NCBI GenBank assembly: GCA_965153455.1
Contig: OZ234494.1
Coordinates: 7,440,001-7,504,000, forward strand
Direction: 5' to 3'
Length of the DNA: 64,000 nt
DNA from: Sphagnum compactum
Taxonomy: Eukaryota
In this document: positions 13,694-63,900 of the stretch, piece after piece
How positions within the stretch are numbered: the first letter of the stretch is position 1
Layout of the letters: each line of letters starts with the position of its first letter
Program-made: the position numbers and the translations under genes
Notes under the pieces: model-generated
The model's input: the letters and a program-made list of their open reading frames with translations, nothing else
What the model was told of the DNA's origin: nothing
Database searches by the model: none

Positions 13694-14064
13694 GAGCATC
13701 TCCACCGGTGCTCAGTATGTGACTCCAGACGCTAAAATTTATTGTGAAAAAGTCAAAATGTGCCGGTTTAGCTCAGGAAATTGGTTTTTCTGCACCAAAT
13801 TCGTGCAGCTTGCCTCGGCCGGTAATTGGCGCAACACAGTTGTGCACCTCCAAAAAAGAGTGTAATAAATTGGACCTGACTGTGGCTCAGTATTCCTGAT
13901 TGGTCGATCATAATGATTGGTCCAGGTGGTTTGCTATAGTAGTACCCAAGTATACGCAATTCCAGTTACAGTTTTATTGGTGGGGTTGCCAGAAAAAAAC
14001 AGCTAAACTTAGACATTTAATTTTAATATCCAGAGTGACATACTGAGCACCAGTGGAGATGCTC
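13694..14064. mobile_element. Tourist-like (PIF/Harbinger) MITE, 371 bp
   Basis: 32-bp TIRs: GAGCATCTCCACCGGTGCTCAGTATGTGACTC versus right-end reverse complement GAGCATCTCCACTGGTGCTCAGTATGTCACTC (2 mismatches). TTA on both sides (13691-13693 and 14065-14067). Confidence 0.92.
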
Positions 14065-15231
14065 TTAGGAGAGGAGTTGACTACTAATTAGTAAGTGCAT
14101 TTTATCTCATATTCTTAGACCCCTTTGCAAGAATATGTGCTCTTTGGTGTACTTGTGGAGTGGAGTTTTTTTTTCCCTCAATTTTTTTATAACCATAAAC
14201 CATATATGAAAGTAAAAATACATATGTGCCCTTCTATATTCTGGGCTACTAACTAGAACCAATTACAAAAATCTGGTCATTTGGAATTTCTTTTTCTCAA
14301 AATCTGGCATATCTGAGCTATTTTTAAAACAAAAAGCCTTTGAATAAATAGAAAATTACAAGTCACATTTTTCAGGTCAAAATTCACCAAATAAAAAGTC
14401 GCTGGCACTGTCCACAATTCAAGATCTTGGGATACTAACAAGTTGAGACAATATTGTGGATGGTTGTTACACAGTCACACACTCATGCAAACCATTGAAC
14501 GAATGTGTGCACCACAAGGGATGAATGGGTTCTGGACAAGAAACACTTTTCCTATCGTGTTTTATAGACAACCACCGTGGTTGGCATAATTTATGTTTTT
14601 AGGTTTTACTACCTACCTTCTAGGTAGATAGTAACCTCCTTACCTATGTACTGACAATCAACAAGCAGCTACTTATCTAGTAACCACTAACCACCTGTTA
14701 CGCCACCTACCCACATACAACTGTCCTATAGTAACTACATTTATCCTAACTGCCTACACACAGGACTTGGATTGATACCTGCGTGAAACTTGATATCAAC
14801 TCATTTGGGGTTCATCCACAACTAAATCACAGAAGGCTTCCAAGCGATGGTGTGCTGGTGTCTGTTGGTTCACCATGGCCTCAAGAAGTGGCATGTAGGC
14901 CCAGGGCGTATTGCAGTGCATGGACTTAACAACAATACAAACAAAAAATTAGATGTTACACGTGAACTAACTTAACCCTTGGGGGATATTTCTCAAGACA
15001 ACCCTTAACTTCTCTCACAGTTGGAGTCACTTCCCCTACCATTGGGTCAGTCTGAACCCATAGGTATTATGAAACAAAACGATCAGCTCATTTGCGGCTA
15101 TGGCATTCATGGCCAGTTCAAACCAGCAATATGTACTTGGAAGGAAGACACTAAATACCCCCTAATGAGCACTGTCTGGGTGTCAGTGCAATCTCCTGCA
15201 TGGTTTTGCACAACGTTTGATTAATGTTTTA

Positions 15232-15258
15232 AATATATATATATATATATATATATAT
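15232..15258. repeat. (TA)n microsatellite
   Basis: Direct read of the TA run. Confidence 0.9.
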
Positions 15259-16469
15259 GCATGGTCCGGCTCTCAAACTAATAGAATAATGTGCATAAGT
15301 GGAGAATTGAATTCAAGACTTGAGATCAAAGGGAACCTTTCTCATTAAGCCATGGTTTCATATGTGAATAAAAAGTGTCAACCATTATTTAAAGTTTGAA
15401 TGCATGTAATGTTTTTAAATAAAAACAATCACTTGTCTTTTCTCATACAAGAAGGTGTGGGATAGTAGGGATGAAATCCTGTATAGAGGGTTTTGGGATC
15501 AGATCCCACTAACCTGAAGATCAGATGGAAACCAATGGTTATCTTTTTTGGGTATTTAAAAAATCCGACCAGTTCTCTATACCTGAAAAAAAATCCTAAA
15601 AACCAAGGCAATTTTTTAAACTTACTGTAAAAACCAAAACTAGTGGTTCTTAGAAAAGAATGAGAACCACCCATTCGTTGTCTTGTGGAAATGTTTCATG
15701 AAGTTAAAAATATCCTACTAAATTTTTAAAATTTTAAAATATATTTTAGATATATAAATATAAAATAGATTATAGAAATTATTTTTTTCATTAAGTTGCA
15801 TCCTATATGTTTTTTGCACATCATTTGAAAAAAATGAAAGTAACTCCCTCTAGGGTGGGCTTACAGAACAAAAAAAAAACAGAAAAACCCCTCGGAATTT
15901 TGCATTGTTTCTTATGCTGCATAAAGCCTGCAGGCAAGGCCATCACCAAAATTAGGCTTCCACTCAACTGCCACCTGGGGCACCCTTATTTTGGTAATGC
16001 CCTGGGGCTTACCCTACACATAATCAGACAGTTTTCACTGCACAGACTAACCCTTTGGGAAGAGGTTCTTCGTAAAGTAGAAGCTTCTAGCAGATTCCGG
16101 TCTGTCTAGTTGATGAATAAAACTTGGCTGGTAAGACAGTCCAAGAGTCACTGGAGTTATAATCACCAGCTGAACGTCATACCGACCTAAGCAGCAGGTG
16201 ACTCGCTGAGCTGCCGATTCAACAAATTAGACAGACCCCTACTACTAGTTGTGGTCCAGATTTAGCAGGAATTGAGGCCACCACGCCATTCTCCAACTAA
16301 CTTTAGGGAGACTGGGGATTTGTTGTGTGGAGTTGACTTCAAGTTGTCAAAAGTTAATTAACTACTAATAATAATAGGAGAAATAATGGTCCTTAAATAA
16401 GAGGGAGCTGTAGCGGTTGAAGTCCGAGTACACTAGCGGATGTAGGTGACATAAAGCAGCTAGTGGGCC

Positions 16470-19900: not shown

Positions 19901-19959
19901 GTGGTACGAATCGGATACTTGATCAGAGGTTATAATCGGCTTTAGAGAGTAGAGAGATC

Positions 19960-21174
19960 ATGACAGGATCATCAGTTGGCGGCACAAACACGACGGCTTG
20001 TGCCGCCTGCAAGTACCAGAGACGCAAGTGCATGCCTGACTGTCCGTTGTCTCCCTACTTCCCAGCCGACCAGCCGAGGCGGTTTGCAAATGTGCACAAG
20101 CTTTTCGGAGTAAGCAACACGCTACGGATCCTGAAACACGTAGACCCAAGCAAGCGTGAGGACACCGTGAAGTCAATTGCGTACGAGGCCGACATGCGCG
20201 ACAAAGACCCGGTACACGGCTGCTTGGGCGTCATTGCAATGCTCCAGAATCAGGTCTTAAACCTCAAGGACGAGCTCGCTATAGCCCACGAGCAGCTCTA
20301 CCTACTGCAGCAGCAACAGCAAAGCTTCCACAGCCAACAATCTCAGCTGCAGCTGCACGCGTTGCAGGGGACATCCTTCGCTGCCGTTACCAGCTCAGGT
20401 GTCCATGATGCCGGGCATGTTCACGGGAGCGGCAATGCAGCAGCTCTGATGAATTTGCAGTTACAGCCGTACAGCAGTTTAGGCGGCAACCATCTGCTGC
20501 TATCTACCTCCAGTTTCAACGATCAGTACTTGCGGCATGAATCTTTTGACCCACCCAAATTGCAAATCGCTCGTGAATACGATCACAGGTCATTCTCGCG
20601 CGTCCCTTTGGTGGGCACTTACCCTAGATCAGTTTGTAGAAAAGAATTTGATCGATTTTTATTAGATTCATGGTTTCATCATACTCATGTCGTTGATCAT
20701 CACCTGCTCCATCTAACCAAGTTGAAAGTGTACAATTTGAAACACAGGTACGCGGGTGAAGAAGCTGCTGATGATTCCAGTTGCTCACTAGTACAGCGTC
20801 AGGCCTTAGCATTGCAGATTAAGGCGGATGAACACGAGTTACAAAGAGCCGCACCGCCGGGAAGCAGCTACTTCGGCGGCGTAGCTAGAGTGAGCTCGGG
20901 TCAGTTTGATGATAGCCCGGTCAGCCACCATCAAATGCACCATCAAGCGGCACTACTCGAGGAAGAGCAAGCCGCCAGCATGCAGCACAGGACTCAGACG
21001 ACAGTACTGATTCCTGACGGTCTTGTAAACCTAGCTGTTACATCCGATCACAACGTCGACTTCAGGAGAGCGTCGAATTATTCGAGTGGAGCAACAGCAG
21101 GTCACGTTAATCCAGACCACGCGGAATGGAGAAGCAGTCCTGGGGTCTATCTAACCTTAACGAACCAGCACTAA
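19960..21174 (+). CDS. LBD: Class I LOB-domain (LBD/ASL) transcription factor
   Basis: CAACKYQRRKCMPDC (CX2CX6CX3C), GAS-type block FANVHKLFGVSN...DPVHGC and a leucine-zipper segment, followed by a Q/S/H-rich tail. Probable intron 20589-20747 (GT..CTAAC..CAG, 159 bp). Spliced product 351 aa; unspliced 404 aa. Confidence 0.95.
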   Translation: MTGSSVGGTNTTACAACKYQRRKCMPDCPLSPYFPADQPRRFANVHKLFGVSNTLRILKHVDPSKREDTVKSIAYEADMRDKDPVHGCLGVIAMLQNQVLNLKDELAIAHEQLYLLQQQQQSFHSQQSQLQLHALQGTSFAAVTSSGVHDAGHVHGSGNAAALMNLQLQPYSSLGGNHLLLSTSSFNDQYLRHESFDPPKLQIAREYDHRSFSRVPLVGTYPRSVCRKEFDRFLLDSWFHHTHVVDHHLLHLTKLKVYNLKHRYAGEEAADDSSCSLVQRQALALQIKADEHELQRAAPPGSSYFGGVARVSSGQFDDSPVSHHQMHHQAALLEEEQAASMQHRTQTTVLIPDGLVNLAVTSDHNVDFRRASNYSSGATAGHVNPDHAEWRSSPGVYLTLTNQH

Positions 21175-45268: not shown

Positions 45269-45321
45269 GAAATGAGCCGCACCTGGCGCTAGAACATTTT
45301 AGGCCAGGTGCGGCTCATTTC
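45269..45321. repeat. Perfect 19-bp inverted repeat (hairpin) within a GC-rich repeat block
   Basis: GAAATGAGCCGCACCTGGC, a 15-nt loop, then GCCAGGTGCGGCTCATTTC. Confidence 0.9.
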
Positions 45322-46539
45322 TGTCTGTGACAGGGCTTGGGAAGGGGGTTTGGCAGAACCGGCCGGCCTCTAAATATACCCAGATGGGGAAAACATAGTT
45401 TATTTCGACCAATCGATGTAGCTGACAGAAACGAGGTCCCGCAACTGGCCTGAAATGTTCCAGCGCCAGGTGCGGGTCGTGGTGGCGGAGAGACACCTGG
45501 CCTGAAATATCTTTTTTTTATGGGAAACTTTTTTTTTTCCCCTCCTGGAAATGTGGCGATTTTTTTTTTTTTTTGAAAATTTTCCAAAATGCTCGCTTCA
45601 CCATGTATGTTTTCATGGGGGACTTTTCAACGGATTTTCATCACAAAAAATAAATAAAACAAAAATAAAAATAGTTGCTTTGCTCCTTTGTGTGTGTCTC
45701 TCTTGGTTTAAAGAAACCGGGGACTTCACAGTGTCCAAAGGTCACGGGTACCCACTAGTTTGACTAAATTCACTACTCATATTACAATATTCTAATAGAT
45801 GATGGAAAAAAATTAAAAATTAAAAATAAAATAAAATATAAATAAAAATATAATTTCAAATTTTAAAAACGAATTCTATTTTTGCAAAAAATACATTATT
45901 CGTTTTGTCACTGTGGAAACTGACCCTACCTACCAGTTCCTATTACCTACCTACAAACCAGGTCTTGATTCACATGGTGGTGATCGGACTGAGCACTTTC
46001 TGGGAACCAACACTTTTTTGGGCGTGACAGCAGGAGGAGCCTGGAGGAGCCTTTTTTTTTACGTTTGTCTGTCTGTTTGCTTGTGTGGATCACACGTGTT
46101 CCAGTTTGATCGTGCCGCGCATTTTCCATGCTCTTTCGGAACCGGTGATCATTCCGCGCATAATTTTGGCGTCGAAACAAATCGAAAGAAAGTCGTCACC
46201 AGCAGTAGTAGTAGGCTAGCAGTGTTTTCAATTTATTTTATTGGCGAAATTTCGCCAAATTTCGGCCTGAAAAATATATGATTTCAATGGATTTCTCATG
46301 GAAAAAACATTGCCCAAATTCGCCAGATTTCGGGAAATTTTGTTTCAAATTGCCAAGTTTTTTTATGATGAGTTCCAGTAGGTACCTATTTAGCCAAGCA
46401 TATCGAAGGATTCTGGTTTTTTTAAAGAAAAACTTTCATATCTAGTATATAGCCAAATTTGGCTAAATTATTTTTTGTATGATTATCACCAGGGATTTCT
46501 GTTTTTTTCCCAATTTTCTGTCGCTGGGTCATTGGGTAG

Positions 46540-46576
46540 GGCTTGAGTGAATTAGCAGCCACCAATGCACCAGTTG
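46540..46576 (+). repeat. Left terminal inverted repeat of the MULE
   Basis: GGCTTGAGTGAATTAGCAGCCACCAATGCACCAGTTG, versus the right-end reverse complement GGCCAGAGTGAATTAACAGCCACCAATGCACCAGTTG. Confidence 0.9.
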
Positions 46577-46871
46577 AGGATGAGCCCGTTCAACCCGTTT
46601 TGAGGATGAGCCCGTTCAACCCATTTTGGGGATGAACCAAAACCACATCCGGACTGCCCAAATATTTTTTTTTTCTCCCGCCTCTACTCTGCCCCAAAAC
46701 ATTTCTCCCCTACCTACCTTCCTCCCCCCTCCTACCTACCCCCTCCTACCTCCCCCCTCCTACCTACCTCCAACGTCTTACCTCTAATCGCCATCGCCAG
46801 AGCACCACAGCGAGAGCAGGAGCACCATCGCGGGAGCACCACAGCGAGAACGGGAGCACCATCGCGGTGCC

Positions 46872-49643
46872 ATGTGTAATCAAGGAAGGTCAGGATTGAG
46901 CTATTGGTCACCAAACATAAACATAGTCAGAGATCCTCGATGGGGAAGGACACAGGAAACACCAGGGGAGGATCCAAAGCTTACGAGTACATATGCAGTC
47001 TACTTTGTAAAGGGTCTGCAAGAGGGACATTATGATGGTTCCCAGATCCACACTGCTGGGGGGCCAAAGCGGTTAAAGGTTTCTGTGTGTTGTAAGCATT
47101 TTACAGCTCATGACTTGGACAGCTGGAAAGGCTATGATCGCAACTATTTTGATGCGAAAGTAAGTTCCATATCCCTCTGCTCCTCAGCATTTTGCTTTCC
47201 TCTAAAGTTCAATGCTTTACCTGCTCCTTTTCAGCTGTGATTTTGTCTCAAGCCCAGTTCATTTTACTGCTGGTTTGTGTCTTTCTATGGACTGATTTGT
47301 CCTCTTCTTATATTTGCTTACCTGGATGGGTAGACAAATGTAAAGCATTGTTTGTTTTAGATGAGCATATTCACCAAGTGAGGGAGATGTCCAAATGCAG
47401 TTTGAATTTTGAAAGTCAAGAATCAGGAAGAATTGTAGAATTCTGATTTAAGAACCTATGGGTTCAAAAGTACATTTCCAGAATCAAATCCTGATTGAAA
47501 CCTTCTCTTGATTGGAACTCAGACCTTCCTACGGATGATAGCTTAATGATCTCAAGAATGTGGTCAGGTGAGTCTGCAAGACTTGGAGGACACTTATAAC
47601 CCACCTTTCAAGAGCTGTGTGAAAGAAGGGCAGTCCAGTAGCCTAATGTGCTCCTACAATCGTCTCAATGGAATTCCTATGTGCAGTCACTATGAGCTTC
47701 TCACTCTCACTGTCCGCAATATTTGGGGCTTTAATGGGTATGTCACGACCTTCAATTGTTTGTGTTTTAGGTTTTGTGCTTGAAGTTGAAGATGAACTGT
47801 TATGAAATCTTAAGATGCCATTTGGCAACAGATTTTATATCAGTTTTTTTGTTGCAGGGCAATTGCAAAAGGGTTTTGATTGACAGAAACTTGTTGTTGG
47901 CTGTAGGTACATTGTGTCAGATTGTGATGCGGTTGCACTAATACATGAATACATCCATTATGCACCTACTCCAGAGGACGCAGTCTCTTATGTTTTGTTG
48001 GCAGGTGCTCCTCTTGGTGTTGGACAATTTGATACTTTTGTTGTGATCTTTAATCACTTTGATTTGTGGGAACTCTGAAAGGTAGGTCACCCATGAGAGA
48101 CATGCCCCAGAAAATGAACTGAAACTTGAGATGAATTTTTCAGGTATGGATCTTAATTGTGGAACGACAGTTTTATATCATGCTCAGGCTGCACTAGACA
48201 AGGGATTAATTTGGGAGGAACTTATAAACATGCACCTGCGCAACCTGTTCTCTGTGCGGATGCGATTGGGGATGTTTGACGGAGATCCTGAAACTCTTCT
48301 GTTCGGCTCACTGGGACCATCTGATGTTTGCACCACTGGTCACCAAAATCTTGCTCTTGAGGCTGCTCAACAAAGCATTGTTCTGTTGAAAAATGATAGA
48401 AGTGCACTTCCATGGAACAAAACAAAAAAGTTCAAGGTGGCTGTGATTGGCCCTCATGGGAATGCAACTCAAGAGATGCTTGGTAATTATGAAGGTATAA
48501 TTGGGCCATCCTATTGATTCCTCAAAGTGATTCCTCTTGACATCTTATAGTAATGTGGGTTGCCAGTACAAGTGCAACTATTCTGGCCTACCAACTCTGA
48601 AGCTTTCTGTGCTTAGTCAGTATTTTTGAAATGTCACATGTTGTCAAACTAATTGTCATGGCAAAGTTGTGAGTTTAACCCCAACATGCCTAAGGTTTGT
48701 AAGATTGGTCCCCTTAGGCACATAAGGGAAAATCTGTTTGCTTCCAAGGTTTTGCCAAAGCCTAGTCTTATCAGAAGAGTGAGAATTAGAAAGAGACTTG
48801 TCATAAAAAAAATTCTTTGGGTTTCTGCAGGCATTCCCTGTAAATTTACAAGTCCTTTGGATGGAATAAAAACACTTTTTGGGGGCAATGGGCAAAGTGT
48901 GATTTACGCACCTGGATGTGCTGATGCAACTTGCAGAGATGGAAATCTCTTTCCATTTGCAGTGACTGCTGCCTCAGAAGCAAATGCAGTTGTCTTATTT
49001 GTTGGATTAAGCCAGGCCCAAGAATCAGAAGGACGGGACCGTGAAAGTCTACGTCTTCCAGGCAAGCAAGAGGAATTAATTTCAACTGTACTAGATGCTG
49101 TTAACGGGCGCCCAGTTGTGTTCGTAATATTGTCAGGTGGGCCTGTTGATGTCTCATTTGCAAATGACGATGAGCGAGTTGGAGGTATTCTATGGGCAGG
49201 CTATCCTGGACAGGCTGGTGGTCAAGCAATAGCAGAAATCATCTTTGGTGATGTGAATCCAGGTAATTTAGGTGCCTTGTTAAATGCAATGACTTGGTCT
49301 CTGATTTGGTTTAATGAGTGAAACCTCTGGTGCAGGTTCTAGGGGAAGAATATTTGAGGGTGGGGTTCTGTTTCATAATAATTGTCAGGTCTCAATTACT
49401 GGATGGCTAGCTCCAGGATGTAACAAATGAGAACTGGCACGATGGGTGTTCTATCTCCTGCATATGGAGGTTAACTATTCTGTTATGATGACAGCCATAT
49501 GCTATAAGACACGTTAAGTGTTGTGATTGAAATGAACCTTTTTGCTCACAGGTTGTGGATGTTTTGATTGGTGTGATGTTATAGGAGGCCGATTAGCTCT
49601 TTCATGGTACCATGAGAATTACACACAGATGGATATGTTTTGA
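46872..49643 (+). pseudogene. BXL: Captured internal fragment of a GH3 beta-D-xylosidase/arabinofuranosidase (BXL) gene; open spliced frame of 465 aa
   Basis: Exons 46872-47159, 47568-47737, 47907-48004, 48144-48494, 48831-49262, 49585-49643. Motifs [80 protein letters not shown]. Lacks the signal peptide/N-terminus and the C-terminal Fn3-like domain. Confidence 0.9.
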
Positions 49644-49690
49644 TCCAAGGTGTGTTACGGTTTAATTTGGTGATTTTTGGGTGTTTGTAG

Positions 49691-49847
49691 GGTTCAGGAC
49701 CAAACAAAGGCCCAGTTTGTTGCAAATGCAGTTCAGATTGAGATGCAACGCTGCCATCTTTACACTGCTCATCATGCAGCAAAGGTTGCAAATGCAGCAG
49801 CTGCATATCGAGCTAAACACGGGATTGTAGATACTGATATGGGTTAG
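49691..49847 (+). pseudogene. Orphan terminal exon of an unknown, probably element-encoded gene
   Basis: After a TGTTTGTAG acceptor it reads VQDQTKAQFVANAVQIEMQRCHLYTAHHAAKVANAAAAYRAKHGIVDTDMG*, followed by T-rich, 3'-UTR-like sequence. Not BXL-like. Confidence 0.45.
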
Positions 49848-50959
49848 GGTTTCATTTTATATAATTAGTAAGGTTTTGTAGCCCTTTTCTTTTTTGGACT
49901 ACCCAATTTTGAACTTTGATCCTTTGATATGTTATAGTGATCCAATGTTTTTTCTTCATTGGGTTCTCTAGTAATTTTCCATGCACCCATTTTTGTACAT
50001 CTTTTATTAATATAATAGTATCGGCTACTCACACTTGTTTGATGTGTATTTGGTTAATCCTATATGTCTTCTTTGTCATAATTTTGTTTGTACTTGAAAT
50101 GTAAGAATCAAATCAAAGATCAAAATAAACATTATACAATACTTACATCTAAGTTAATAGGACTCACATCACTTGAAGACTTTAAAAATAATCCACACAT
50201 TTTAAACATATAATACCCACATCATTTTCTATTATGAACTCCATAAGACCATTTTCTAATATGCAATACCTGCATATAACCTCAAAAAATAGCCACAGAC
50301 ATTTTGCATTAAATGCAATACCCGCATATAAGTCCCATAATAGGCAATGGCCTTTTTCATTCATTGCAATACCCTCATATGAGTCCCATAATAGCCGCTG
50401 GCATTTTGCATTCCTTACAATACCCACATAAAGGGCACAAATAATCATTGACATTCTTCATTCGTTGCAATACCCGCATATAGTCTCCAAAATAGCGACT
50501 GGTTTTTTTGGGTTCTCTTGCAATACCCGCATATAGGTCCCATAATAGTTGCTGGTTTTTTCATTCATTGTAAAACTTACATTTTGTCATAAAATTAATT
50601 TAGAATAATATTTAATTTAGGTATATAAAAAGACATAATTTTGGTACCCAGACCATTTTTGAAATGACATTACATGCGAGTATTGCATTTAGGGTTTAGG
50701 GTTTTCACATATGCTTTCCTCCAATCACCTATGTATTATTTCAGTATGATCTTGCAAATATGTATTGCATTTTTTTGCATATAAAATTCCCCTTATAATG
50801 CACCATAGATTTATTTCATTTACTATTAATTTGTAAAAAAACTGTTAATTAATTTAGGGTTTCCCAAACTCTAAATTTCAATCATGGATTCCCAATCAAC
50901 AACCCTAACCTCCATACACACCTTTGTTAGCATATGATTTTGAAATTAACTAGTTATTT

Positions 50960-51112
50960 TAGAGTGACCCTAAATGCAGGTATTGCATTTAGGGTAAGAT
51001 CTTCATTTAAAAAAGGCTTAAACCCCACATGCGTATTTTTTGTGTGACCCAAAGTGCAGGTATTGCATTTAAGGTAGGATTTTCGTATAAAGATGCTTAA
51101 ACCCACATGCGT
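50960..51112. repeat. ~80-bp satellite block of the MULE (x2)
   Basis: GTGACCC(T/A)AA(A/G)TGCAGGTATTGCATTTA(G/A)GGTA...CTTAAACCC(C)ACATGCGTA starting at 50964 and 51044. Confidence 0.85.
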
Positions 51113-51246
51113 ACAATAGCCTCCCGCCTAAGTACGCAACTTGAACCTGGGAGGAGTGTGCGTACTTAGCCGGTAGGTGCGCACTTAAGACCAATCACTT
51201 TTCTTTGTAGCCACAACAGCAGCTTTAGCAACATCATTATCAGTAT

Positions 51247-51710
51247 CCTAAACCTAAACCCTAAACCTAAACCCTAAACCCAAAACCTGAACCTAAACCT
51301 TAAACCCTAAATTTAAACCCTAACTTAAACCTTAAACCTTAAACCTAAACCCTAAATCTAAACCTAAACCCTAAACCTTAAACCTAAACCTAAACCTTAA
51401 ACCCTAAATCTAAACCCTAACTTAAACCCTAAATCTAAACCCTAACTTAAACCCTAAACCCCTAAACCGTAAACCCTAAATCTAAACCTAAACCCTAAAC
51501 CCTAAACCTAAACCTTAACCTTAAACCCTAAATCTAAACCCTAACTTATACCCTAAACCCCTAAACCCTAAATCTAACCCTAAACCCTAAACTTAAACCT
51601 AAACCCTAAACCTTAAATCTAAACCCTAAACTTAAACCTAAACCCTAAATTTAAACCTAAACCTTAACCTTAAACCCTAAATCTAAACCCTAAACTTAAA
51701 CCTAAACCCT
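51247..51710. repeat. Degenerate interstitial telomere-like array (CCCTAAA/CCTAAA/CCTTAAA/TCTAAA)
   Basis: ~460 bp of variants of the plant telomere repeat. Opposite-orientation TTTAGGG units follow at ~51755-51775. Confidence 0.9.
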
Positions 51711-53326
51711 CTATAATGCATTGTAGATTTATTTTATTTACTATTAATATTTGTAGGGTTTAGGGTTTTAGGGTTTACCCAACCTTAACATGTGAAAACC
51801 CAACCCTAAACCCTAAACCCCTAAAATATTATATGTATTGAAAATGGATCAACAGTATAATTCCATAATATCATTATTTATGTATTAGGTTTTATAAATA
51901 ACAATATATTTGGACCAATATTTAAACCACTATTATGTGTTTTGATTTTTTTTTAACACAATTTAAAATCTCATTAAATTAAAGACTTTATATTTACGTT
52001 TTTAGTATGAATATACAACTTTAAAAGGGGAAAAAAAATATGAACATCTTTGAAAAATATTTAAGCTTGAACTTTTTATTTTTTGATCTTCACAAACTTT
52101 GTATTGCATTTAGGGTTGGGTTTTCACATAAGGTTTGTTTTTTACCTTTGTGTGATAACTCCAACCTAATTTTCCCAATCTCTTTCAGGAAGATATAGAA
52201 TGCAATTGTATTGTTTCACATATGTCTAAACCCTAAAATTTTCCCCCCAATTTAATATAAAATATTTATGATAATTAATGAATTATCAATAAAATTTGTC
52301 ATATAATTAAATAATTAATAGACCATTATTTTAGATAATTTAGATGATTAATTATGAAGAATTAGATAATCATTTATTTATTTAAAATAATTAACCAATC
52401 ATTTGGCTTAAATTTATTTACTTGAAAATAAAAAGTTGGATTTAATCAGATTAATTAATTTGATATTTGATTGACTAAATTTAGTATATTTTTGTTTTAA
52501 TAAGTTATTGGAATCATTATTTAAGATAATTATTCCATGTTATAAATTGCAAGTTCAACTTTTTCATGAAAATTTCTTACACCAAAATAAGCTTGATCAC
52601 AATTGTCATTGTACTATTTGTTCCACAAATAATAGAACCTCTTTTCAAATTCATGAAAAAAAGTAAGGGTTAACTAATTATTTTAGAGTGACCCCAAATG
52701 CAGGTATTGCATTTAGGGTAGGATCTTCATTTAAAGAAGGCTTAAACCCCACATGCGTATTTTTCGTGTGACCCAAAATGCAGGTATTGCATTTAGGGTA
52801 GGGTTTTTTGAAGGTGACTTTGCGTCTGCATATTGTGTATAGGGCTAGGTCTTCACTTAAGGGTACCCAAACCATTTAGATGGGTTTTGTTTTTACGTGT
52901 GGGTATTGCATCTAGGCTTGTTTTTCATTTAAACTTGCAATACCCGAACTTATACTTACATATACTAACTGGAATGTTGGGGTTTCATTGCAATACCTAC
53001 ATCCATACTTACCTTTACCAACTGGAATTTTGGGGCATAATTGCAATACTTGCATTTGTACTTACTTTTACCAACTGGGATTTTGGGGCCTAGTTACAAT
53101 ACTTGCATCTAACATTAATATTATCATTATCCTTGTGTGTTTGCATTTCACACTTTTTGTGCTTATTATTTGGAAACAATAATAACCTTTGTGCCATATT
53201 GGACTTCATGTGTGTTGAATACATGATGTTCAAAGAATTTGGGGTATGATTTCCTCCATACAACATTGATTCTAAAAGAAAATTCTTAGTGCTAATGGCA
53301 ACAATCTTGATTAGTAATTGAAACAT

Positions 53327-56046
53327 TTATTCATGACATCGTTTAGTACGTACATTTGTGTGATTGAGCATTGTTTCATGCCAATCTTTGAGCCGTTTGA
53401 CACTATTTCCCAATCCATCTTCTACACGGCGTAACACCAATCCTGGGTGTGAAATTGCATTTGCCTTTGTGAGGCGTATGTTACGAATATTACATGCCAA
53501 TATTCTCATGTATGAGGTGGCATGTTCACAAAGTGTCACAACGCCTTCTTTACATTCATTTGTGATCTTTTGCATTGTAGTGACCAATTGTGCAAGAGCC
53601 CTTTCCATTGGGGTTGATGACATTATTGTCTCATTAGACCCTACAATGGCACCCATAGGGAGATCATTTTGCTCCATGTTCATGAGCCCATCAAATTCCA
53701 TGATCCCATCATCACCTTCAAGATGATCATCTTCGTCATCATCACTAGACTCCATATCATCTGGAATATGTTGCGGGTCTGCAAACATGTGACCCAACCC
53801 TCCACGATGTGATCCATACCATGTTCCACAATAATGAATGATATCCTCTTGAGAAATGTCTATGCATGTGAGAATGACCTTAATTTGGTGTTTACACATG
53901 TTCGCTCGCAATGCCCATTCGCATGTGCAACAAAACATTTCGGTGAATGGGAATTTCACCGTGTAAATAACATTGGGAAGGCGCTGGCTCCGTACGGCCC
54001 AAGCTCCATCACTCTCAAGGGTTGGTTGGTACACATGGCTGATTGGAATAAGGGCTGCCTTCTCCACACTTTGTGTAATAATGGCTTCCATAACCTTGTT
54101 TTTTATGAAACCCTTCTTTTTCATTTCCAATGTGTGCATGTAGTGGCGTGCAATGGTTGTTGTTAATCGCCACACCAACCAGTCAATCCTACGCCCTCTA
54201 AGGCCTCTTGTGTCAAGAGCAAGCCAACGTTTCAACGCACCATGATATGAGTCAATGCTCGCTTGGGTGTCTTGGTTGGAATGGGCACTCTTCGAACACT
54301 CACCATCCATAATTCTACAAACATAAACACAATACACAAGGATGAATAACATTATACAAAATAAATTTGAATGCTGAACCATGATAAGTATTATCACTTA
54401 CCAAATTGATGGTAATAAGTCCAGAAATAGTTTGTCCACGCATCACCAGGCCTATGTTTATGAAGGCTTTCTCTCACAGCAACCCTCCCACGCTCTTTGA
54501 AGTCATCAATTGTTTCTCCATGATTGATGGACATGTACATCACATCATGAAGGTCTTGGAGGATTCCACCCCGCACTTCCACATCTTTGATTTTTTCAGT
54601 ACCACGTAGGCGCCATGCTTTGAGAACATGCCAACAACAAAGGTAGATGGGAACCTTGTCCATACCCCATACGACCCTAATAAGGACACATATGCAATAA
54701 AATATCCATGAGTGGATGGGGTTAGTACAACATAAAATGCATTTGAAATAATCAAGAATTTTATGAAAGATATTAAAAAAACATTTAAGGAAATAAACAC
54801 AAAGTCAATACTAGGTATAGAACTAACCGTAATGCCTTCAATTCTTGAGGTGCATCATCAACGAGAAAACATGATGGTTTCCAATGTGGCATGAGTGATA
54901 ACATCTTCTCTTTTAATGGTTTTAACCATTCGATCAAATCTTGCACTGTTTGCCTACCTGTAATGATCCAGGCTAAAGGGACACTCGTGCGATGATCATC
55001 AAATCCCATCAAGGTGAATAGATGGAATTTCATGTCATTTGTGCCAAATGTGGCATCCATAGAAATGGCACCATTGTGACCATATGATAGCATGGACTCA
55101 CATTGAGTTGGTGTTTGAATACCTATGGTGAATGGGACTTGACTTCCATTCATTTCACCAACATCTTGGAAAAAGAACACATCTTCCGGATGTTGGAGAG
55201 CCCAAGACCGAATTGAAATTGCAGGGTTAGTGTGTAAACGCCAACTCCCTTTCTTATGTTTTCGATCCAAATATGCAATGTCTTGAAGCCGAATGAAATC
55301 ATCTCGTGTCATGCTTTGACCCGCATTCACACGTTCCCACCAAATTGCTTTATGCTTGTCATATATTTGTTTGGGGGTATAACCTAAGCTTAATTGGGCC
55401 CATATGTGGTCTTACAGTGCTTGTGACATGCGTGGAGCATAACGAGACATACGAGAAATGGACTCTGGGTCATGCTCACCATGTGCGAATGACCCATCAA
55501 TTTGTGTATGGGCCTTATGATAAATTGTGATCTCAGCCACATCAGGTCGTGTGTATAGACGTTTGATTGAGAATGACGCTAGGCATCCTCGTTTAATAGA
55601 TCGAGTGTGGGTTGAATTTTTTCGATAGTCCTCTGGTCCATATGCGCATTGATACCTAGACCAAAAAACTTTCAAAATGTAAATGATTACATATTTGGTA
55701 TATGAATTAAATAAATTAAAAAGGTTAATGCCATAAATGTTTACCATGTATGCCCGAGGTGGTTTTTGATAGTTGGATGCTTGACATCCGTTTGGCTTGG
55801 AAAGTTTTTGTAAACACTCCATTCCACAGGGGTGCTCGTATCCCCTCGTTCACCTTCCAAGAATTCCGAGATGCGAGTATACAGAACATAAGCAAATTGA
55901 ATGCTCACTTTATTTTGCCCTCCATGGCGTATCCCAAACGTCCACACCAAGTCTTTGTTTGAGAAAGGGGACTTGGTGGGGTTTTGGACATGAATGGAAT
56001 GGGACTTTGGAACCCTTCCCATGATTGAAGGAAGTAGGACAAATTC
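53327..56046 (-). pseudogene. MULE (Mutator-family DDE) transposase with SWIM zinc finger, disrupted
   Basis: Exons 56046-55745, 55655-54828, 54676-54402, 54314-53327. Motifs SMDATFGTN (D1), FLVDDA (D2), LCCWH (CxxH), TQASIDSYH (expected E is D) and CTC...CKH (SWIM). In-frame TAA at 55412-55414 and an apparent 1-nt deletion near 54284. The true first exon was not located. Confidence 0.88.
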
Positions 56047-57517
56047 CTGCATCAAGAGAATTTATAATTCTCTAAACATTCATCATTGAACAAAAACCCA
56101 AAATGCAATACATTCATGGCTCCTTTAAAATCAATGTTGTGACTTGGAATTCCCATTACAACACCCATATCATGATATAAAAAACCTATTATTCCAATGT
56201 ACATAACGTACAACACTTGCATTATGAACCCATATACTAAAACAAACTTTGGCAATACCCACATTGAGCTATTAAACCTTCCATCATTGAAAATTTTCTC
56301 ATATGTAATACCCGTATTGTACCTTAAACCCATAATGTCTGAAAACCCCATGTAGCAATACCTACATAATGATAATTAATGCACACTGTTTGAAAGGTGC
56401 AAAATGCAATACCTGCCTTAAGCCATAAAACCCACACTGGTTGTGGGTAGTCAATGCATAATTCGCATATGGGTATGAAAAAAAGAACTACAAAGAAATA
56501 TTGAATATGAAATATCCATGTAAAAGTATAAAACCTTTATCTATGCTTGTATATTTAATGAAACTTGATGCCCTTTCTATATCCAACAAGTAGGAAATGA
56601 AAAGAGGTTGAATTATGAAAAATATAAACAAAAAAACAAAAGAAGTAACAAGAGACAAATGCATACCTTCAAGAATAAAAGATGACAACGTTCCACCAAA
56701 GTTTATAGTCCCAATTGAAAACGCAACCCTAAAAAATCATAACTCGTAAAAAAATGGGTTAGAAAATATTAAACCCTAGCAACTATGGAACATATGGAAA
56801 CAAAGGAAATTCAAATTATGGTATAGATCTAAACAAGTGAAAAGATCAAAAACCAATACAATGAACAAAATTTAGAGTATAAACCTTAGGTTTTGAAATA
56901 TATGAACCAAATTCTTATACACTAAATAATAAAGCATAACCTTTAAAATTCAAATGATATTTTGCCATAAGCCTTATTACAACCCTATTTATACAAACCC
57001 TAACAAGAAAAAGTCTTACTAATATATGTCCTAAACCCAAAAAACTATACAAATTATACAAATTATATAATGAAAAATACGTTAATCTACAAAAACAATC
57101 AAATAATTTTCATACAAAACCAAAAGAGAAGATATGTCTTTTACCTTTGTGTGATCTCTCCAACTTAATTTTTTCCACTCTTTTGGAAGAAGATATAGAA
57201 TGCAATTGTATTACTTCACATATGTGTAAACCCTAAAATTTTCCCCCCAAATTTAGCCTACTTTAGATTAATTACTATACATTTGTGAGAAACTTATGAA
57301 CTAATTTATGTGTCTCAACCCTAAACCTAATGGTTAAGTTAGTAGGGTATGTAATTAATAGAGTAGCTAGGTTAGTAGGGTAGGTGGTTAGTACAATAGC
57401 TAGGTCAGTAGGATAACTAGTTATTAGGGTAGCTATGTGAGTAAGGGATAATAAATAAGGTATGAAGGTTGGTGCAATACTTATGAGGGTAGGAAAGTGA
57501 GCAGGGTAGCTATTTAG

Positions 57518-57712
57518 AGTGACCCAAAATGCAGGTATTGCATTTAGGGTGGGATCTTCATATAAATAAGCCTAAATCCCACATGCGTACTTTCGACGTG
57601 ACCCAAAATGCAGGTATTGCATTTAGGGTAAGATCTTCGTATAAAGAAAGCTTAAACCTTACATGCGTCCTTTAGGAGTGACCCAAATTGCAGGTATTGC
57701 ATTTAGGGTTGG
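57518..57712. repeat. ~80-bp satellite block of the MULE (further blocks at ~52688-52805, 58640-58845, 59365-59555)
   Basis: Unit core CCCAAAATGCAGGTATTGCATTTAGGGT, starting at 57519, 57598 and 57678. Confidence 0.85.
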
Positions 57713-59594
57713 GTTATTTCAAAGTGACTTTGCATATGCATATTGTGTTTAGGGCTAGGTCTTCACTTAAGGGTATCCAAACCATTTAGATGGGGTTTTT
57801 TCAAACGTGGGTATTACATTTAGGTTTGTTTTTTCATTTCAACTTCAGACTTATACTTACCTTTACCAACTAGAATTTTGGGGTTTCGTTGCAATACCTA
57901 CACCTGTACTTACTTTTACCAACTGAATAGTTGCCGACATTCTTCATTCGTTGCAATACCCGCATATCGATCCATGGTATTCGTTGGGTTTTTATAACAT
58001 TCGTTGCAATACCCGCATATAGTTCCCATAATAGCTGCTGGTTTTTTTTGGCATCTCTTGCAATACTCGCATATAGGTCTCATAATAGTTGCTAGTTTAT
58101 TTTTGATCTCAACAAACTTTGTATCGCATTCAGGGTTGGGTTTTCACATAAAGTTTGTTAATTACATTTGTGTGATAATCCAACCTCATTTTCTCAATCT
58201 CTTTGAAGAAAATATAGAACGAGATTGTATTGTGTCACATATATCTAAACCCAAAAATTTCCCCCCAATTTAATATAAAATATTTCTGATAATTAATTTA
58301 TTATCAAATAATTTAGATGAATAATTATAAAAAATCAGATTGATTAATTTGATATTTGATTAATTAACTGAAGTATATTTTTGTTTTAATAAGTTATTGA
58401 AATCATTATTTAAGATAATTATTCCATGTTATAGATTGTAAGTTCAGCTTTTTCATGAAAAATTCCTACACCAAGATAAGTTTGATCACAATTGTCATCG
58501 TATTATTTGATCCACAAACAATACAACCTCTTTTCAAATTCATGAAACGAAGTAAGAATCATGGAACTCCTAATCAACAACACTAACCTCTATACACACC
58601 TTTGTTAGCATATTAATTTGAAATTAATTAATTATTTTTGTGTGCCCCAAAATGTAGGTATTGCATTTAGGGTAGGATCTTCATATAAAGAAGCTTAAAC
58701 CCTATATGCGTCCTTTCGGAGTGGCCCAAATTGCAGGTATTGCATTTAGGGTAGGATCTTCGTATAAAGATGCTTAAACCCCACATGTGTATTTTTTGTG
58801 TGCCCCAAAATGCAGGTATTGCATTTAGGGTGGGATCTTCATATAAACCCTAACTATACAAACCCTAACAAAAAGAAGAATTAGTGATATATGCCCTAAA
58901 CCCAAAAAACTATATAAACTATACAAATCATATAATGCAAAATAACCAAATTTAAAAGAACATAGGAAAAAATTTAGAAACCAAAATTCAAAGGTTTTTA
59001 ATTATAAATATTTATTAACTGAAAGAAAATATGTTAATCTTTAGAAATAATCAAATAAATTTCGTACAAAACCAAAAAAGAAGATATGTCTTTTACCTTT
59101 GTGTGATTTTTCCAACCTAATTTTTCCATTCTTTTTGAAGAAGGTATAAAATGCAATTGTATTACTTCACATGTGTGTAAACCCTAAAATTTTCCCCCCA
59201 AATTTAGCTTACTTTAAATTAATTATTATACATTTATGAAAAACTTATCAATTAATTTATGTGTCTCAACCCTAAACCTAATGATTAAGTTAGTAGGGTA
59301 TGTAATTAATAGAGTAGCTAGGTTAGTAGGGTAGGTGGTTAGTACAGTAGCTTGGTTAGTGATGTGACCCAAAATGCAAGTATTGCATTTAGGGTATGAT
59401 CTTCATGTAAAGATGCTAAAAGCCCACATGCGTACTTTCGAAATGGCCCAAAATGCAGGTATTGCATTTAGGGTAGGATCTTTGTATAAAGAAAGCTTGA
59501 ACCCCACATGCGTACTTTCGAAATGGCCCAAAATGCAGGTATTGCATTTAGGGTAAGGTTTTTAGGGTAGGGTATGTAATTAATAGGGTAGCTA

Positions 59595-59730
59595 GGTTAG
59601 TAGGGTAGGTGGTAAGTACAGTAGCTAGGTTAGTAGGGTAGGTGATGAGTACAGTAGCCAGGTTAGTAGGGTAGGTGGTGAGTACAGTAGCCAGGTTAGT
59701 AGGGTAGGTGGTGAGTACAGTAGCTAGGTA
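59595..59730. repeat. 33-bp subterminal tandem repeat (x4)
   Basis: GGTTAGTAGGGTAGGTG(G/A)T(G/A)AGTACAGTAGC(T/C)A repeated. Confidence 0.9.
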
Positions 59731-59909
59731 GAAAAGTGAACAGGGTAGAAAAGTGAGCAGGGTAGCTATGTGTGAGGTCAGGTCCAGGGAAAAACGAGCA
59801 AGAAAAAAAAAAAAAAAGTACAGTGGTCAGCAGCAAAAAGAAATCGACTGTGATGAGCCCCATCCGGCGCCGAATGAAAAAACGCAACCCATCCAGTGGA
59901 CAGAACGGC

Positions 59910-59946
59910 CAACTGGTGCATTGGTGGCTGTTAATTCACTCTGGCC
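59910..59946 (-). repeat. Right terminal inverted repeat of the MULE
   Basis: CAACTGGTGCATTGGTGGCTGTTAATTCACTCTGGCC followed immediately by the TSD ATTGGGTAG. Confidence 0.9.
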
Positions 59947-60511
59947 ATTGGGTAGCATCCTGAGAGGGATTTAGCATGACAACAGGTTAAAATTTTTCTT
60001 TTTCCAAGTTTGGCAATTCTGTCAGAAAAAAAAGGGGAAAAAACTAATTAAAAAAAAATGCTACAAAGCTATAAATCAAATTCCAAATGTGGCGAACAGT
60101 TTTGAAACAAATCATTTTTAGAATATTGGCGATTGTTTGACAGCAAACGGAAAATATAGTGACAGAATAATATTTCATATTTTTTTTGAAAAATTCCCAT
60201 TTTCTCGAAATTTAGCATTTCAAAAAAAAAGCTGAGATTCGCCACCTTGGCTACATCACAAAATCCTTTTTAAAAAAAAAAACAGCAGCAGCACCTGCAG
60301 GAGCCAGGGCATGGCGGAACAGCAGCCAGCAGGTCGCAATTTGATTTGCCAGATCGGGCACAGACGTGCACCTCTAAGGACGGGAACGGGAAAGTGTTTT
60401 GTTGTTTGTTTGTTAGGTGTGTGTGTGTGTGTGTGGGGGTGTGCTTTTTTCGCGGTTTTTTACATGCTGCCGCCTCCCATCGCTGCTTCGTGAGCTTCTT
60501 CCTTCCTAATA

Positions 60512-60632
60512 ATTTTTCATGGATTGCAATAAAACTCATGATTTTTCAAGGCTGCTTGCAATAAAAGTCATGATTTTTCAAGGATTGCAATGAACGCGAT
60601 GATTTCTCAAGGATTGCAGTAAAAGTCACGAT
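60512..60632. repeat. ~29-bp tandem repeat (x4) upstream of the ABCB start codon
   Basis: GATTTTTCAAGGATTGCAATAAAA(C/G)TCAT-like units. Confidence 0.8.
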
Positions 60633-60968
60633 GATTGAGGAAGAGGGGAGAAAAAAAAGTTTTTTTTTCGCATGATGGCTGTTCCTTCTTCCTTGGAGAC
60701 GCTTTTTTTCTTTTTCTTTTTGGGTTTATTAGTGCTTTGAGATTTTGGGAGTTTTAGGCGATTTGGATGGCTTGAGGTTTTTGTGGGTTTTTGTGGTGCT
60801 GCTCGTGCTCCTATAAAGATTTGGTTGTAGGAATTAGTAGTAGTAGTAGTAGTAGGGAGTTCAGGAATTGTGTGTGTGTGTGTGTTTGTGTATGTGGGTG
60901 CGAGTGTTGTTGGCTTTTTATTTTTTGCAGCAAAGGGAAGGGAAAGGAAAAGGACGGGAGGCCACTGA

Positions 60969-63900
60969 ATGGGGAAGAGGAATGGATACTTGCCGGAGAC
61001 TCCAGTGTTCAATGGCACCACCAATGTAAGAGTCGCAAGCAGGCAGCGGCGGTGGCGATTGGCGATATTCATTTCTGTCTTTTGCGTCGATCTTCTGTTT
61101 GCGCTGGTAATCCTTTGTGCAAAGTCTTCTTCTGTATAGTATTGCCTGTCCTTGTTTTGCCTTTTAGGTTTACCGTGCCCCGATGAGATTTTTTCTCAAA
61201 GCTCTGGGGTTTACATATTGCGGATACCCTATCACCTCTGGAGTAGGTATAGAGATCTGTTGTGGTTTATTTGGCTGAATTTGTTGTCTCCACAGATGTT
61301 GAGCAGGCAATGCAAATAGGGACAGTTAAGTTAGTTTTTTCAGAAGAAATTTATTTTTCAAAGAAGATTCACTCTGAGAATCCATAGGGAGGATGGAAAA
61401 TCTTGTTGGATGTGGAACGGTTGCAGCTCTTATACAGAAGATTTTTTAGTTTTTAAAAAATTTCTGAGAATCTGTAGTGAGGGTGGGAAAAAATTTCTTG
61501 CTGGATGTGGAACGGTGTTGCAGCTCTTGTACAGCACAGTGCATTTTTGGAGCGACAAGAATGATTTTTCATTGAGTGGGTTGTGGCATTCGCTGACATG
61601 CTTTACCACAGACACCTTGGATTTAGTTCTCCTGAGTCTGCTGCGGTTGGGGAGCCTTTCGGGGCTTTCCTATTATGGGAGTGTGCTTGCTTGTGTGGAA
61701 GCTGTGGACAAAGAGAAGAAGGTCAAAGGCAGCAGCAAACCACAGCACTCACAGCAGCCAACGAACAGGAACAACACTAGTAAAGTGTACTCACGTGCAG
61801 CAGGTGCCAACATCAATGGAGAGTCTCATCCTAATGGCAAATTATTGGAGAATGGAAGCCTTAAAGAACCACTGCTGTCCAAGAAGGACTCAGTAGCTGT
61901 TAAGGCTCCTGCAAGTTTCTATCAAGAGTGGTTTGCAGGATCATCAAGGAAAGATGCTGTTTTTCTTGTTGTCTTTCTTCTTTGCACTGGATTCCAGGTA
62001 CCCTCTTTGTTTCATCCTTTTCTGGCTGACTGCTCTATGTGTCAGCCCCTCTTTTGTGTTATGTATAGGAGAAGGGTAGGGCCAGAGGCTCTTCCTTGTT
62101 TTGAGGTGCCTAGGCACAAGGGTAGAAACCTGACTGACAGGCACTGAAAACAAGGATGGGCCAAGGGTCCTACCCTTCTACATCATAAAAAGGTGCCCTA
62201 ATTTTCAGAGGGTGTGAGCTTCCACCACAGAAGATTTCTTCTATTTCAGAAGATCCTTGCTGAGTTCTTGCACCTGACAATGGTCGTCTAAATACACTAC
62301 AAAAATTAGGGCAGGTTTTTACATGGTGGAGAGAGATGAAATTTGCGGCAGTTGTTGATGATGATGAACCATATGGAGGTTTTGCAGTTTATCAGATTAA
62401 TTGGTGGGCATGGGTGATATGTGGTGAACCTGTAGGCATATGTGGGGGCCAAGTGTGTCGGGTTTTCTTTTGACACTCTGCATAGACTGTTCAACGTGCG
62501 GCTTGAAATATGGCAAAGCATTTTGATGGGCACCACAGTTCTGTGGATAAATGCAGAAAGCTCCATGTTGACGCGTGTTGTGGACTCCAACCGTGTGCTG
62601 AGTCGTGCCCATTTTCTCAATGCCAAGCACACAGCCCAGGACCTTGAAGGTTCTCGAATTATTATTGGAGCTATCAAGTAGGAAATGCTTCCTGTGATGG
62701 ATCTAAAATGCTCATTAATCAGCTTGCAATTTTTTTTACAGCTGCAATGCTGCTATATTGGGTAAGTGCAGAATTGCTCTTCATTTTAGTAGGTAACAGT
62801 CAAATGGGCAACTTATAATTTGGGAGGGTGTAATGGTTTTCAGCAATGTGAATTCTGTGGAAGCTGAGGAAGGGACTTTGAGAGGCGACAAGGGAGTAAG
62901 AGAGGAGCAAGAGGTGGACCAGACTAGTTACTTGATGCGGGCAGTGTCTCTAGCTCGGAATGAATGCCTTCTGCTGTCCTGTGCTTTTTTCTGCCTTATG
63001 GTGTCATCTGTTTCCAGCTTGATCCTGCCAAATTATCAGGTTTTTCTCACTCTCACTTGACTGCTCTTATTTTCATTTGTGTTAGAAGAAATTTATGTCC
63101 AATGTATGTACCCATGTGAGAGTTCTCTTGTAATTTGCTGGTGCCAAAAGAGGAAACTCAAGCTATTGTTAGTGCTCACAGCATTGTGTTTAATTTCTTT
63201 CACAGGGTCGAATATTGGATCACGTGATTCAAGGAGCAGTAGCTCTGTTCAGGAGGGATGTGATATTGTTGATAGTCTTTAGCTTGGTGACCGGCCTTTT
63301 TGAGGCAGTTCGAAATCTATCCTTCACAGTGGTGAGCAAGCGTGTGTTAAAGACTCTGCAGGACAAGCTTTTCACAGGCATTGTGATACAAGACATTGCT
63401 TATTTTGATGGCACTACATCTGGAGAGGTCAGCAGTCAAGCTTTCAGTTTTTGAGTTTATTACATGAGATGGATAACCTTATCAAGCCCTGGTGTTGAAA
63501 CAATTGAAGGAGGTGTCATTTCCACTTTGGGGATTCTTTTTGTTTTACTCATGTTATTTTGGTGGCAGAGACATAAAAGGACTTGCTCATGAGGTGTAGG
63601 TTCCGTTGACATGAGAGTAAGAGTATACTTTGGTGAAACCTGATTATATTTATTTTGTGCACTATGAACAGCTGACCTCAAGGCTCACCAACGATGTGTC
63701 CTCAATGGCTGAGCCTGTGAACTGGATGCTTTCAGCACTTTTGCGAAATTTGCTCGCACTTGGCGGTGGATTTGCAATGTGCTTCATCATAAGCTGGAAG
63801 CTTAGCATGCTTGCTTTCACTACCATGGCTCCCATTATGCATATAACGGCTGTGTACTCTCGGTGGTCTAGGGAGCTTAATCGCAAGCGATATGCTTTGC

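Follow-up and report, generated by a model that had tools for sequence, protein, structure and literature searches.

A Mutator-like element in Sphagnum compactum that carries a recent, intron-containing capture of a beta-xylosidase gene, probably as a neutral relic

A 64-kb stretch of the genome of the peat moss Sphagnum compactum (assembly GCA_965153455.1, contig OZ234494.1, positions 7,440,001 to 7,504,000 of the forward strand; hereafter the window) contains a Mutator-like element (MULE) that harbors the middle of a GH3 beta-xylosidase (BXL) gene with its introns. The element is 13,407 bp long (46540-59946), and the BXL piece lies 329 bp inside its left end, reading inward. All positions are window coordinates, on the plus strand unless stated otherwise. 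Pack-MULEs, which are MULEs with host gene fragments, are documented in grasses (rice, maize), Arabidopsis, and a lycophyte. We assign a probability of roughly 85% to the reading that 46540-59946 is one MULE, inserted here as a unit, whose BXL piece is a recent DNA-level capture and a neutral relic rather than a new enzyme. In the proposed mechanism, the middle of a gene for a secreted GH3 beta-xylosidase would have been copied at the DNA level by Pack-MULE-type transduplication. The 465-codon frame of the copy would still be open because there has been too little time for decay, not through selection; its start codon would stem from an internal Met of the parent and its stop codon from element DNA past the breakpoint.

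The captured genomic piece, delimited by blastn against four parental loci (L001-L004), occupies 2,770 bp (46869-49638, plus strand) and includes five introns, each with GT..AG ends (5/5). Splice borders and Pfam matches place six exon pieces at 46872-47159, 47568-47737, 47907-48004, 48144-48494, 48831-49262, and 49585-49643; joined, they give a spliced frame of 1398 nt, or 465 codons plus TGA, with zero internal stops. Pfam assigns exons 1-2 to the GH3 N-terminal domain, where they cover profile positions 120-245 of 316; GH3_C is recognized in exons 4-5 (E = 2.6e-30 for exon 5). A preliminary description of this DNA, made from its letters alone, had claimed an intron-containing BXL fragment that keeps an open 465-aa frame and both catalytic residues; the intact introns, the GH3 domains, and the alignment to PcBxl3 described below confirm it. 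Because the introns are kept, the capture is best understood as a DNA-level event.

Homology to the parental loci runs from 46869, which is 3 nt upstream of the ATG, to 49638. The left breakpoint is abutted by 34-nt repeats containing GGAGCACCATCGCG (46791-46867), and the abrupt onset of BXL sequence right after element repeats is thus as first described. Fragment exon 1 is the second coding exon of the parent, cut 21 nt past the intron acceptor as read from the alignment. The piece spans most of parental coding exon 2 to the first 54 nt of exon 7, and both breakpoints lie inside parental exons. The BXL sequence had been said to stop within its sixth exon; the stop 18 codons into that exon stands, but since fragment exon 1 is the second coding exon of the parent, the exon is the parent's seventh. 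Similarly, an in-frame ATG and TGA do bound the frame, with two corrections to their origin. The ATG corresponds to a Met inside the parental protein (GRAMYNQ in the parent), and the TGA at 49641-49643 is non-BXL DNA just past the last BXL base at 49638. Microhomology at the left junction, inspected by eye in the alignment, was unconvincing.

The parental genes were obtained from a scan of metagenome contigs, which yielded a 94-96% class (L001 and L002, identical to each other, L003, and L004) and an 80% paralogue class comprising L005, a spliced transcript, and the genomic loci L006-L010. Identities for exon 5 are graded: Sphagnum magellanicum protein P0001 (651 aa) reaches 96%, a second peat-moss sequence group 80%, a Ceratodon BXL 65%, and other Sphagnum BXLs 58%; they indicate a Sphagnum-like moss. 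When window positions 40000-64000 were compared with L001-L004 by blastn, each locus gave one match, always 46869-49638, at 96.6-96.8% over 2788 columns, and in the alignment the likeness stops abruptly on both sides of the fragment. Upstream, the parental loci have an intron of ~1 kb preceded by a first exon with the start Met, a hydrophobic leader, and WWGEGLHG; downstream of the fragment end, they have two further exons. Full-length parental copies, whose existence the preliminary description had made a point to check, are therefore found among the metagenome loci, with parental exons on both sides, and the combination expected of a Pack-MULE is present: a host gene fragment inside the element and a parental gene elsewhere.

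Two side observations concern these loci. The public S. magellanicum model P0001 starts at the same internal Met as the captured fragment; contig L001 (1448-2230) equals P0001 in its exons, yet has an upstream exon with start Met, leader, and WWGEGLHG. The public gene model is probably incomplete at the 5' end. In addition, 80% paralogue loci contain a second, more distant BXL-like match ~8 kb downstream (L008:11305-11390, L009:16850-16935), which suggests tandem BXL genes in peat mosses.

The same comparisons bear on a different origin, in which a native BXL gene was disrupted in place, the arms being separate insertions and the other exons lost or nearby. Only the location of BXL sequence among repeats would fit such a history. 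However, the homology ends inside exons and joins arm repeats that have no terminal inverted repeat (TIR) or target-site duplication of their own, and all 13.4 kb lie within a single TIR pair that is flanked by a perfect 9-bp duplication. A full-length Ceratodon BXL searched against the whole 64-kb window by tblastn matches with residues 141-590 only, and residues 1-140 and 591-796 have no match anywhere in it. The missing exons, which might have lain just outside the TIRs, are neither there nor elsewhere in the window. As far as the window reaches, disruption in place is thus excluded, and we consider this origin extremely improbable.

The element that encloses the fragment is delimited at both ends. 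The 9-bp word ATTGGGTAG directly abuts the left TIR (46531-46539) and recurs identically just outside the right TIR (59947-59955); it is present three times in the window, the third, unrelated occurrence being at 49899 on the minus strand. The left TIR (46540-46576, plus strand) and the right TIR (59910-59946, minus strand) are 37 nt each and match at 34/37 positions when the right one is reverse-complemented. Their 32-nt core (46545-46576) is found inverted at 59941-59910 and at no third site in the window, with 0 such sites expected by chance. The element therefore has TIRs at both ends, a perfect 9-bp target-site duplication, and, as described next, a MURA-like transposase; MULE duplications measure 9-11 bp, and 9-10 bp is the value in the available text of PMC3310237. 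As the preliminary description had it, this is a DNA-level capture inside a TIR element: introns are retained, and TIRs plus target-site duplication enclose the fragment.

A MULE/SWIM transposase gene with three coding blocks occupies 53327-55849 on the minus strand. The Pfam MULE domain PF10551 is recognized in it with 34 bits, above the cutoff of 27.6 (E = 4.1e-8), and by tblastn a Riccia SWIM/MULE protein (P0170) aligns to 55294-54794, 54654-54409, and 54286-53765 at 35% identity. A SWIM-like CxC...CxH motif was read by eye in the translation. One protein was matched by the 208-aa transposase open reading frame (ORF), and a search of the 356-aa ORF against longer proteins returned no match. 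An in-frame stop at 55412-55414 breaks the gene, so that further movement would need transposase from another copy.

The left subterminal arm (46577-46868, plus strand) contains 26-nt repeats, pyrimidine-rich 14-nt repeats, and the 34-nt GGAGCACCATCGCG-type repeats that run up to the BXL breakpoint, with tandem arrays at 46574-46635, 46713-46783, and 46791-46867; it is loosely like the right arm, with gaps, over ~280 nt. High-copy element DNA follows the fragment at 49639-50207 (plus strand), is transcribed in sense, and is a possible 3' untranslated region (UTR) of a chimeric RNA. A 57-aa ORF at 49674-49844 has no credible Pfam match; its phage-sheath hit, with 16 bits well below the cutoff of 31 (E = 0.0099), was dismissed as chance. 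Self-blast, repeat families, and tandem repeats define an internal block of subterminal-type repeats at 50246-53108 (plus strand), in direct orientation to the right arm. The right arm itself (56981-59770, plus strand) is a tandemly duplicated subterminal unit of ~1.9 kb, as seen by self-blast and tandem repeats: 57052-57409 and 59000-59360 match at 90%, along with more matched blocks, and 33-nt and 80-nt tandem repeats are present. The internal block includes, at 51247-51710, a degenerate telomere-like array of CCTAAAC heptamers (~71 copies, 75% matches); RNA reads of either strand touch this array, and their loose ends continue elsewhere. A whole-window blastn search found no relatives of the element among the 80 loci retrieved; outside BXL, it returned just 7 short matches, at 13846-16003.

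Independent sequence data were mapped on 46200-56200. These comprised DNA contigs of organism A (X1, the best DNA match) and of a second organism (X8), metatranscriptome contigs (X15), and raw polyadenylated (poly-A) RNA reads of organism A (X22; ~12% of the run, 209 reads placed). Runs sharing <=0.41 of sampled words were left out, namely organism C, moss metagenomes, and four other RNA runs. X1 contig ends fall exactly at 46867, 46869, and 49638, as expected of an assembly-graph branch when parental and element junctions coexist. An X8 contig of 1,106 nt fits 49130-49638 and then continues for 596 nt unlike the window into parental sequence, and an X15 contig starts 50 nt upstream of the breakpoint in parental sequence. 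These patterns suggest that organism A has both junction forms and organism B the parental form only.

A further alternative is that the MULE/BXL junctions are an assembly chimera of a repeat and the parental gene. Two observations would allow it: neither junction is crossed by an independent contig or read among those displayed, and even X1 shares only 0.81 of its sampled words with the window. Nevertheless, the X1 contigs stop at the breakpoints as at branch points, with X8 and X15 running on into parental sequence; derived letters of the window copy recur in RNA reads; and two clean breakpoints inside one element flanked by a target-site duplication are an unlikely misjoin. We regard a chimera as very improbable, if somewhat less so than disruption in place.

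The age of the capture was estimated from its distance to parental sequences. From the metagenome parents, the fragment is 1.9-2.2% distant in its exons and 3.1-3.5% in its introns; the introns have 18-21 gap columns and the exons 0. Between the parents, the distances are 1.2-1.9% in exons and 1.9-2.9% in introns, which indicates that most of the distance between fragment and parents is species divergence. Against the X1 contigs, only 10 letters differ over 2,733 bases (~0.4%), with no intron gaps; against the parent of the second organism in X8, 19 letters differ over 2,575 bases (~0.7%). The capture is thus no older than ~0.4-0.7% divergence. The preliminary description had offered two options, a very recent capture or a selected derivative without a signal peptide, and these distances make the first the better one.

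The second option is part of a broader alternative, in which the fragment is a functional new gene under selection, encoding a cytosolic truncated GH3 protein, or a source of RNA that modulates parental BXL. The open frame and the intactness of all splice sites speak for it. Seven exon sites differ between window and X1; the window letter is derived at six of them, and the metagenome parents vary at the seventh (48922). Five changes are nonsynonymous, at V72 (47086), L238 (48300), T317 (48872), F345 (48957), and F400 (49121), and two are synonymous, at A333 (48922) and Q382 (49069). This 5:2 ratio is the one expected under neutrality, for which 74.5% nonsynonymous changes are predicted, and the derived changes in the captured copy fit neutrality. 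In simulations, the frame stays open in 73% of cases with 7 random substitutions and in 53% with 15. At so young an age, chance alone would be expected to leave the frame open (P about 0.73), and its openness is no sign of selection. On a longer branch private to the window, 7 nonsynonymous and 5 synonymous changes were counted, compared with 10 and 15 for three parental branches summed. The comparison of nonsynonymous with synonymous change (dN/dS), which had been suggested as a check, therefore gives a neutral result with X1 as reference and a result compatible with both models on the private branch.

The predicted product also argues against a functional enzyme. Residues were mapped by aligning the parental protein P0001, which has the same start Met and served as a stand-in, to PcBxl3 (7VC6, 743 residues). 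In the available text of PMC8913315, Asp267 of PcBxl3 is the nucleophile and Glu470 the acid/base, and Trp60 and Glu62 contact xylose in subsite -1. In this alignment, the Asp of SDCD coincides with Asp267 and, within ESEGRDR, the second Glu with Glu470, and the window retains YIVSDCDAV and QESEGRDRES; both putative catalytic residues are kept, as originally claimed. Like plant and fungal GH3 beta-xylosidases (for instance PcBxl3, PDB 7VC6/7VC7), the fragment has N- and C-terminal GH3 domains with these two residues. Unlike them, it covers only about residues 120-560 of 743 and is without a signal peptide, the N-terminal barrel strands, and the Fn3-like domain. Since the fragment starts at the position of PcBxl3 residue 120, it has no counterparts of Trp60 and Glu62. 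The match to the GH3 N-terminal Pfam profile likewise starts at position 120, so 119 of its 316 positions are missing, and the WWGEGLHG stretch is present in the parental first exon only, outside the fragment. That exon also encodes, after its Met, the hydrophobic leader, and the signal peptide is absent from the fragment. At the other end, the fragment stops 18 codons into the exon preceding the Fn3-like domain (PF14310, listed for full-length relatives), which is absent as well. Enzyme activity is unlikely without the signal peptide, ~119 barrel residues including two of subsite -1, and the C-terminal domain, and a working xylosidase from the 465-aa product is, as judged from its sequence, unlikely. 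A protein made from it would be located in the cytosol and would be either unfolded or without catalytic activity, given the missing signal peptide, first third of the (beta/alpha)8 barrel, and Fn3-like domain. Moreover, none of the three exon ORFs of this copy was present in the protein collection in an exact look-up (0/3).

Poly-A RNA provides further points for function. Over BXL exon bins, X22 depth is 7.0-17.5 in sense and 0-0.79 in antisense, with sense assigned per most stranded-library conventions; this asymmetry argues against a source of double-stranded RNA in this library. The preliminary description had also raised siRNAs against the parental gene as a possible product; on that point, the library offers only its near lack of antisense reads. 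All five BXL splice joints appear in X22 (14, 8, 5, 5, and 4 reads) and in metatranscriptome contigs, where origin from the copy and origin from the parent are not separable. At seven sites, the window's letters are found in 8/22, 6/12, 7/10, 5/9, 6/11, 2/12, and 3/15 reads. RNA reads with derived letters of this copy indicate that either the captured copy or an identical parental allele is expressed. Spliced, sense, poly-A reads with these letters speak for a functional gene. Element DNA 3' of the fragment is also covered, with X22 sense depths of 4.69 and 2.57 in two bins, and at 49752 the window's T is present in 4/8 X22 reads, yet in only 12/168 depth units of the X1 DNA contigs. This RNA over the 3' flank contrasts with the transposase part of the same high-copy family, which is almost free of reads (depth 0 in 7/9 bins and <=0.9 in the remaining ones). 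In DNA contigs, the transposase region (53214-56200) reaches depths of 361-928 in X1 and 2086-4824 in X8. The element family is abundant and apparently not transcribed in the sampled poly-A RNA. X1 depth, which is not copy number, is 30-39 over BXL against 4.3 on the one flank contig and hints at several copies of the fragment; the ratio is inconsistent between data sets (~7-9 in X1, ~2 in X8) and serves as a lead only.

Other reads limit this case. In the left arm beside exon 1, no X22 read was placed in this ~12% of one poly-A run, so the spliced reads that had been anticipated to start in the left end of the element were not seen. The depth of 1.05 in bin 46534-46867 comes entirely from 11 reads whose fit is confined to the 32-nt TIR core, with a loose end on either side. 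These 11 reads show the right-arm letter (A at 46555) and lead on to right-arm-like sequence on one side and to unrelated sequence on the other; they are from another genomic copy of the element, read through by a transcript. Five X22 reads cross 49638 into the parental downstream exon, which shows that the parent is expressed in organism A. Twelve X22 reads with a loose end at 46878 were considered as parental transcripts and dismissed, since their loose letters match the 80% paralogue (L005-L010); as partial fits of paralogue reads, they carry no information on the captured copy. Paralogue reads may contaminate the counts of window letters. In the proposed explanation, the copy would probably be transcribed in sense, spliced, and polyadenylated, with element DNA as the 3' UTR. 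Transcription of the fragment from the element is typical of a share of Pack-MULEs, although it does not define them. At present, expression of the captured copy is plausible but unproven, with about even odds.

Taken with the neutral 5:2 ratio, the missing parts of the enzyme, the bare left arm, the near absence of antisense reads, and the unmatched exon ORFs, we consider a selected gene or regulatory RNA source unlikely; the suggestion of a selected, signal-peptide-less derivative is unsupported. A bolder variant is similarly doubtful. In it, the BXL-carrying element would be a small, active, multi-copy subfamily whose spliced, polyadenylated chimeric mRNA makes up a large share of BXL-like transcripts, and this RNA, or a cytosolic, truncated GH3 protein, would act on the parental xylosidase of the cell wall. 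If true, this would show a bryophyte Pack-MULE with a transposase gene at an early stage of founding a new gene or regulating an existing one.

Several observations weigh against a unit-inserted MULE with a neutral BXL relic, and they touch different parts of it. For the junctions, no independent contig or read bridging MULE and BXL is displayed, and the evidence from contig ends is indirect. No BXL-free copy of the element, which would define the acquisition junctions and the mechanism, was found among the loci compared. Its transposase gene sets the element apart from the classical, non-autonomous Pack-MULEs. With regard to neutrality, the window-private branch fits either model (P = 0.23 against neutrality; P = 0.48 against the parental branches). 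Its ratio of exon to intron substitutions is 0.57 (1.08% vs 1.89%), measured against distant parents, and resembles the 0.62-0.75 among parental loci, which are presumably functional orthologues. Finally, pure neutrality sits uneasily with letters of this copy making up 17-70% of RNA depth at the seven sites.

The element resembles known Pack-MULEs in its TIRs, 9-bp target-site duplication, intron-containing host fragment, and identifiable parent elsewhere. Classical Pack-MULEs, as reportedly set out by Jiang et al. in 2004, are non-autonomous and have no transposase gene; here, such a gene is present but stop-interrupted. Pack-MULEs of Selaginella lepidophylla have a mean size of 8.81 kb and share 93.0-99.0% identity with their parental genes, and those of rice total ~2 kb, according to the available text of PMC6839031. 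The size and parental identity of our element are similar to those from S. lepidophylla. Compared with rice, one long piece was captured (2.77 kb, with five introns), and the host here is a moss. The element is a Pack-MULE in the broad sense of PMC6839031, as far as its available text defines that sense, and departs from the classical non-autonomous form. A tandem arrangement of terminal sequences has a counterpart in the MULEs with multiple or tandem terminal repeats covered in the available text of Ferguson and Jiang (2012, PMC3310237), to which the duplicated ~1.9-kb subterminal unit and the internal right-arm-like block are comparable. However, each end here has one 32-nt TIR core, and it is the subterminal arrays, not the TIR tips, that are duplicated.

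A second comparison concerns the layout of the two reading units. MuDR of maize is the autonomous Mutator element and has the genes mudrA and mudrB. In the available text of PMC3310237, its genes are convergent and transcribed from TIR promoters. Our element likewise has two convergent reading units in one MULE: the transposase is read toward the interior from one end, and a second gene is read toward it from the opposite end. It differs from MuDR in that the second unit is a recent, recognizable piece of a host enzyme, that ~4 kb with repeat arrays separate the transposase start from the right end, and that no X22 read starts in the left arm.

The sources returned by our literature search, as far as their text was available, contain no description of a Pack-MULE or such a Mutator-like capture in a moss or in Sphagnum. 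The locus is a clean, young case of a known process, a transposase-bearing Pack-MULE-type capture in a peat moss, and as such is not surprising. It is unusually clean in having base-exact breakpoints, a known parent, an element complete down to the target-site duplication, and a captured piece long enough for five introns that look functional. It could mark recent MULE activity in peat mosses and offers a test case for how fast captured fragments are silenced, decay, or get recruited; alone, it does not change what is known of transposon-mediated gene duplication.

The surroundings of the element contain three minor features. To its right, 60626-62752 holds several frames of 136-270 codons on both strands, with no Pfam match for the two that were scanned. 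About 1 kb to its left, a pair of 40-nt inverted repeats (90% identical, spaced 125 nt; 45274-45478) resembles a miniature inverted-repeat transposable element (MITE). Farther upstream, a frame of 412 codons at 19936-21174 (plus strand) matches the LOB (lateral organ boundaries) domain in Pfam (E = 1.3e-38) and is probably a host transcription-factor gene ~25 kb from the element.

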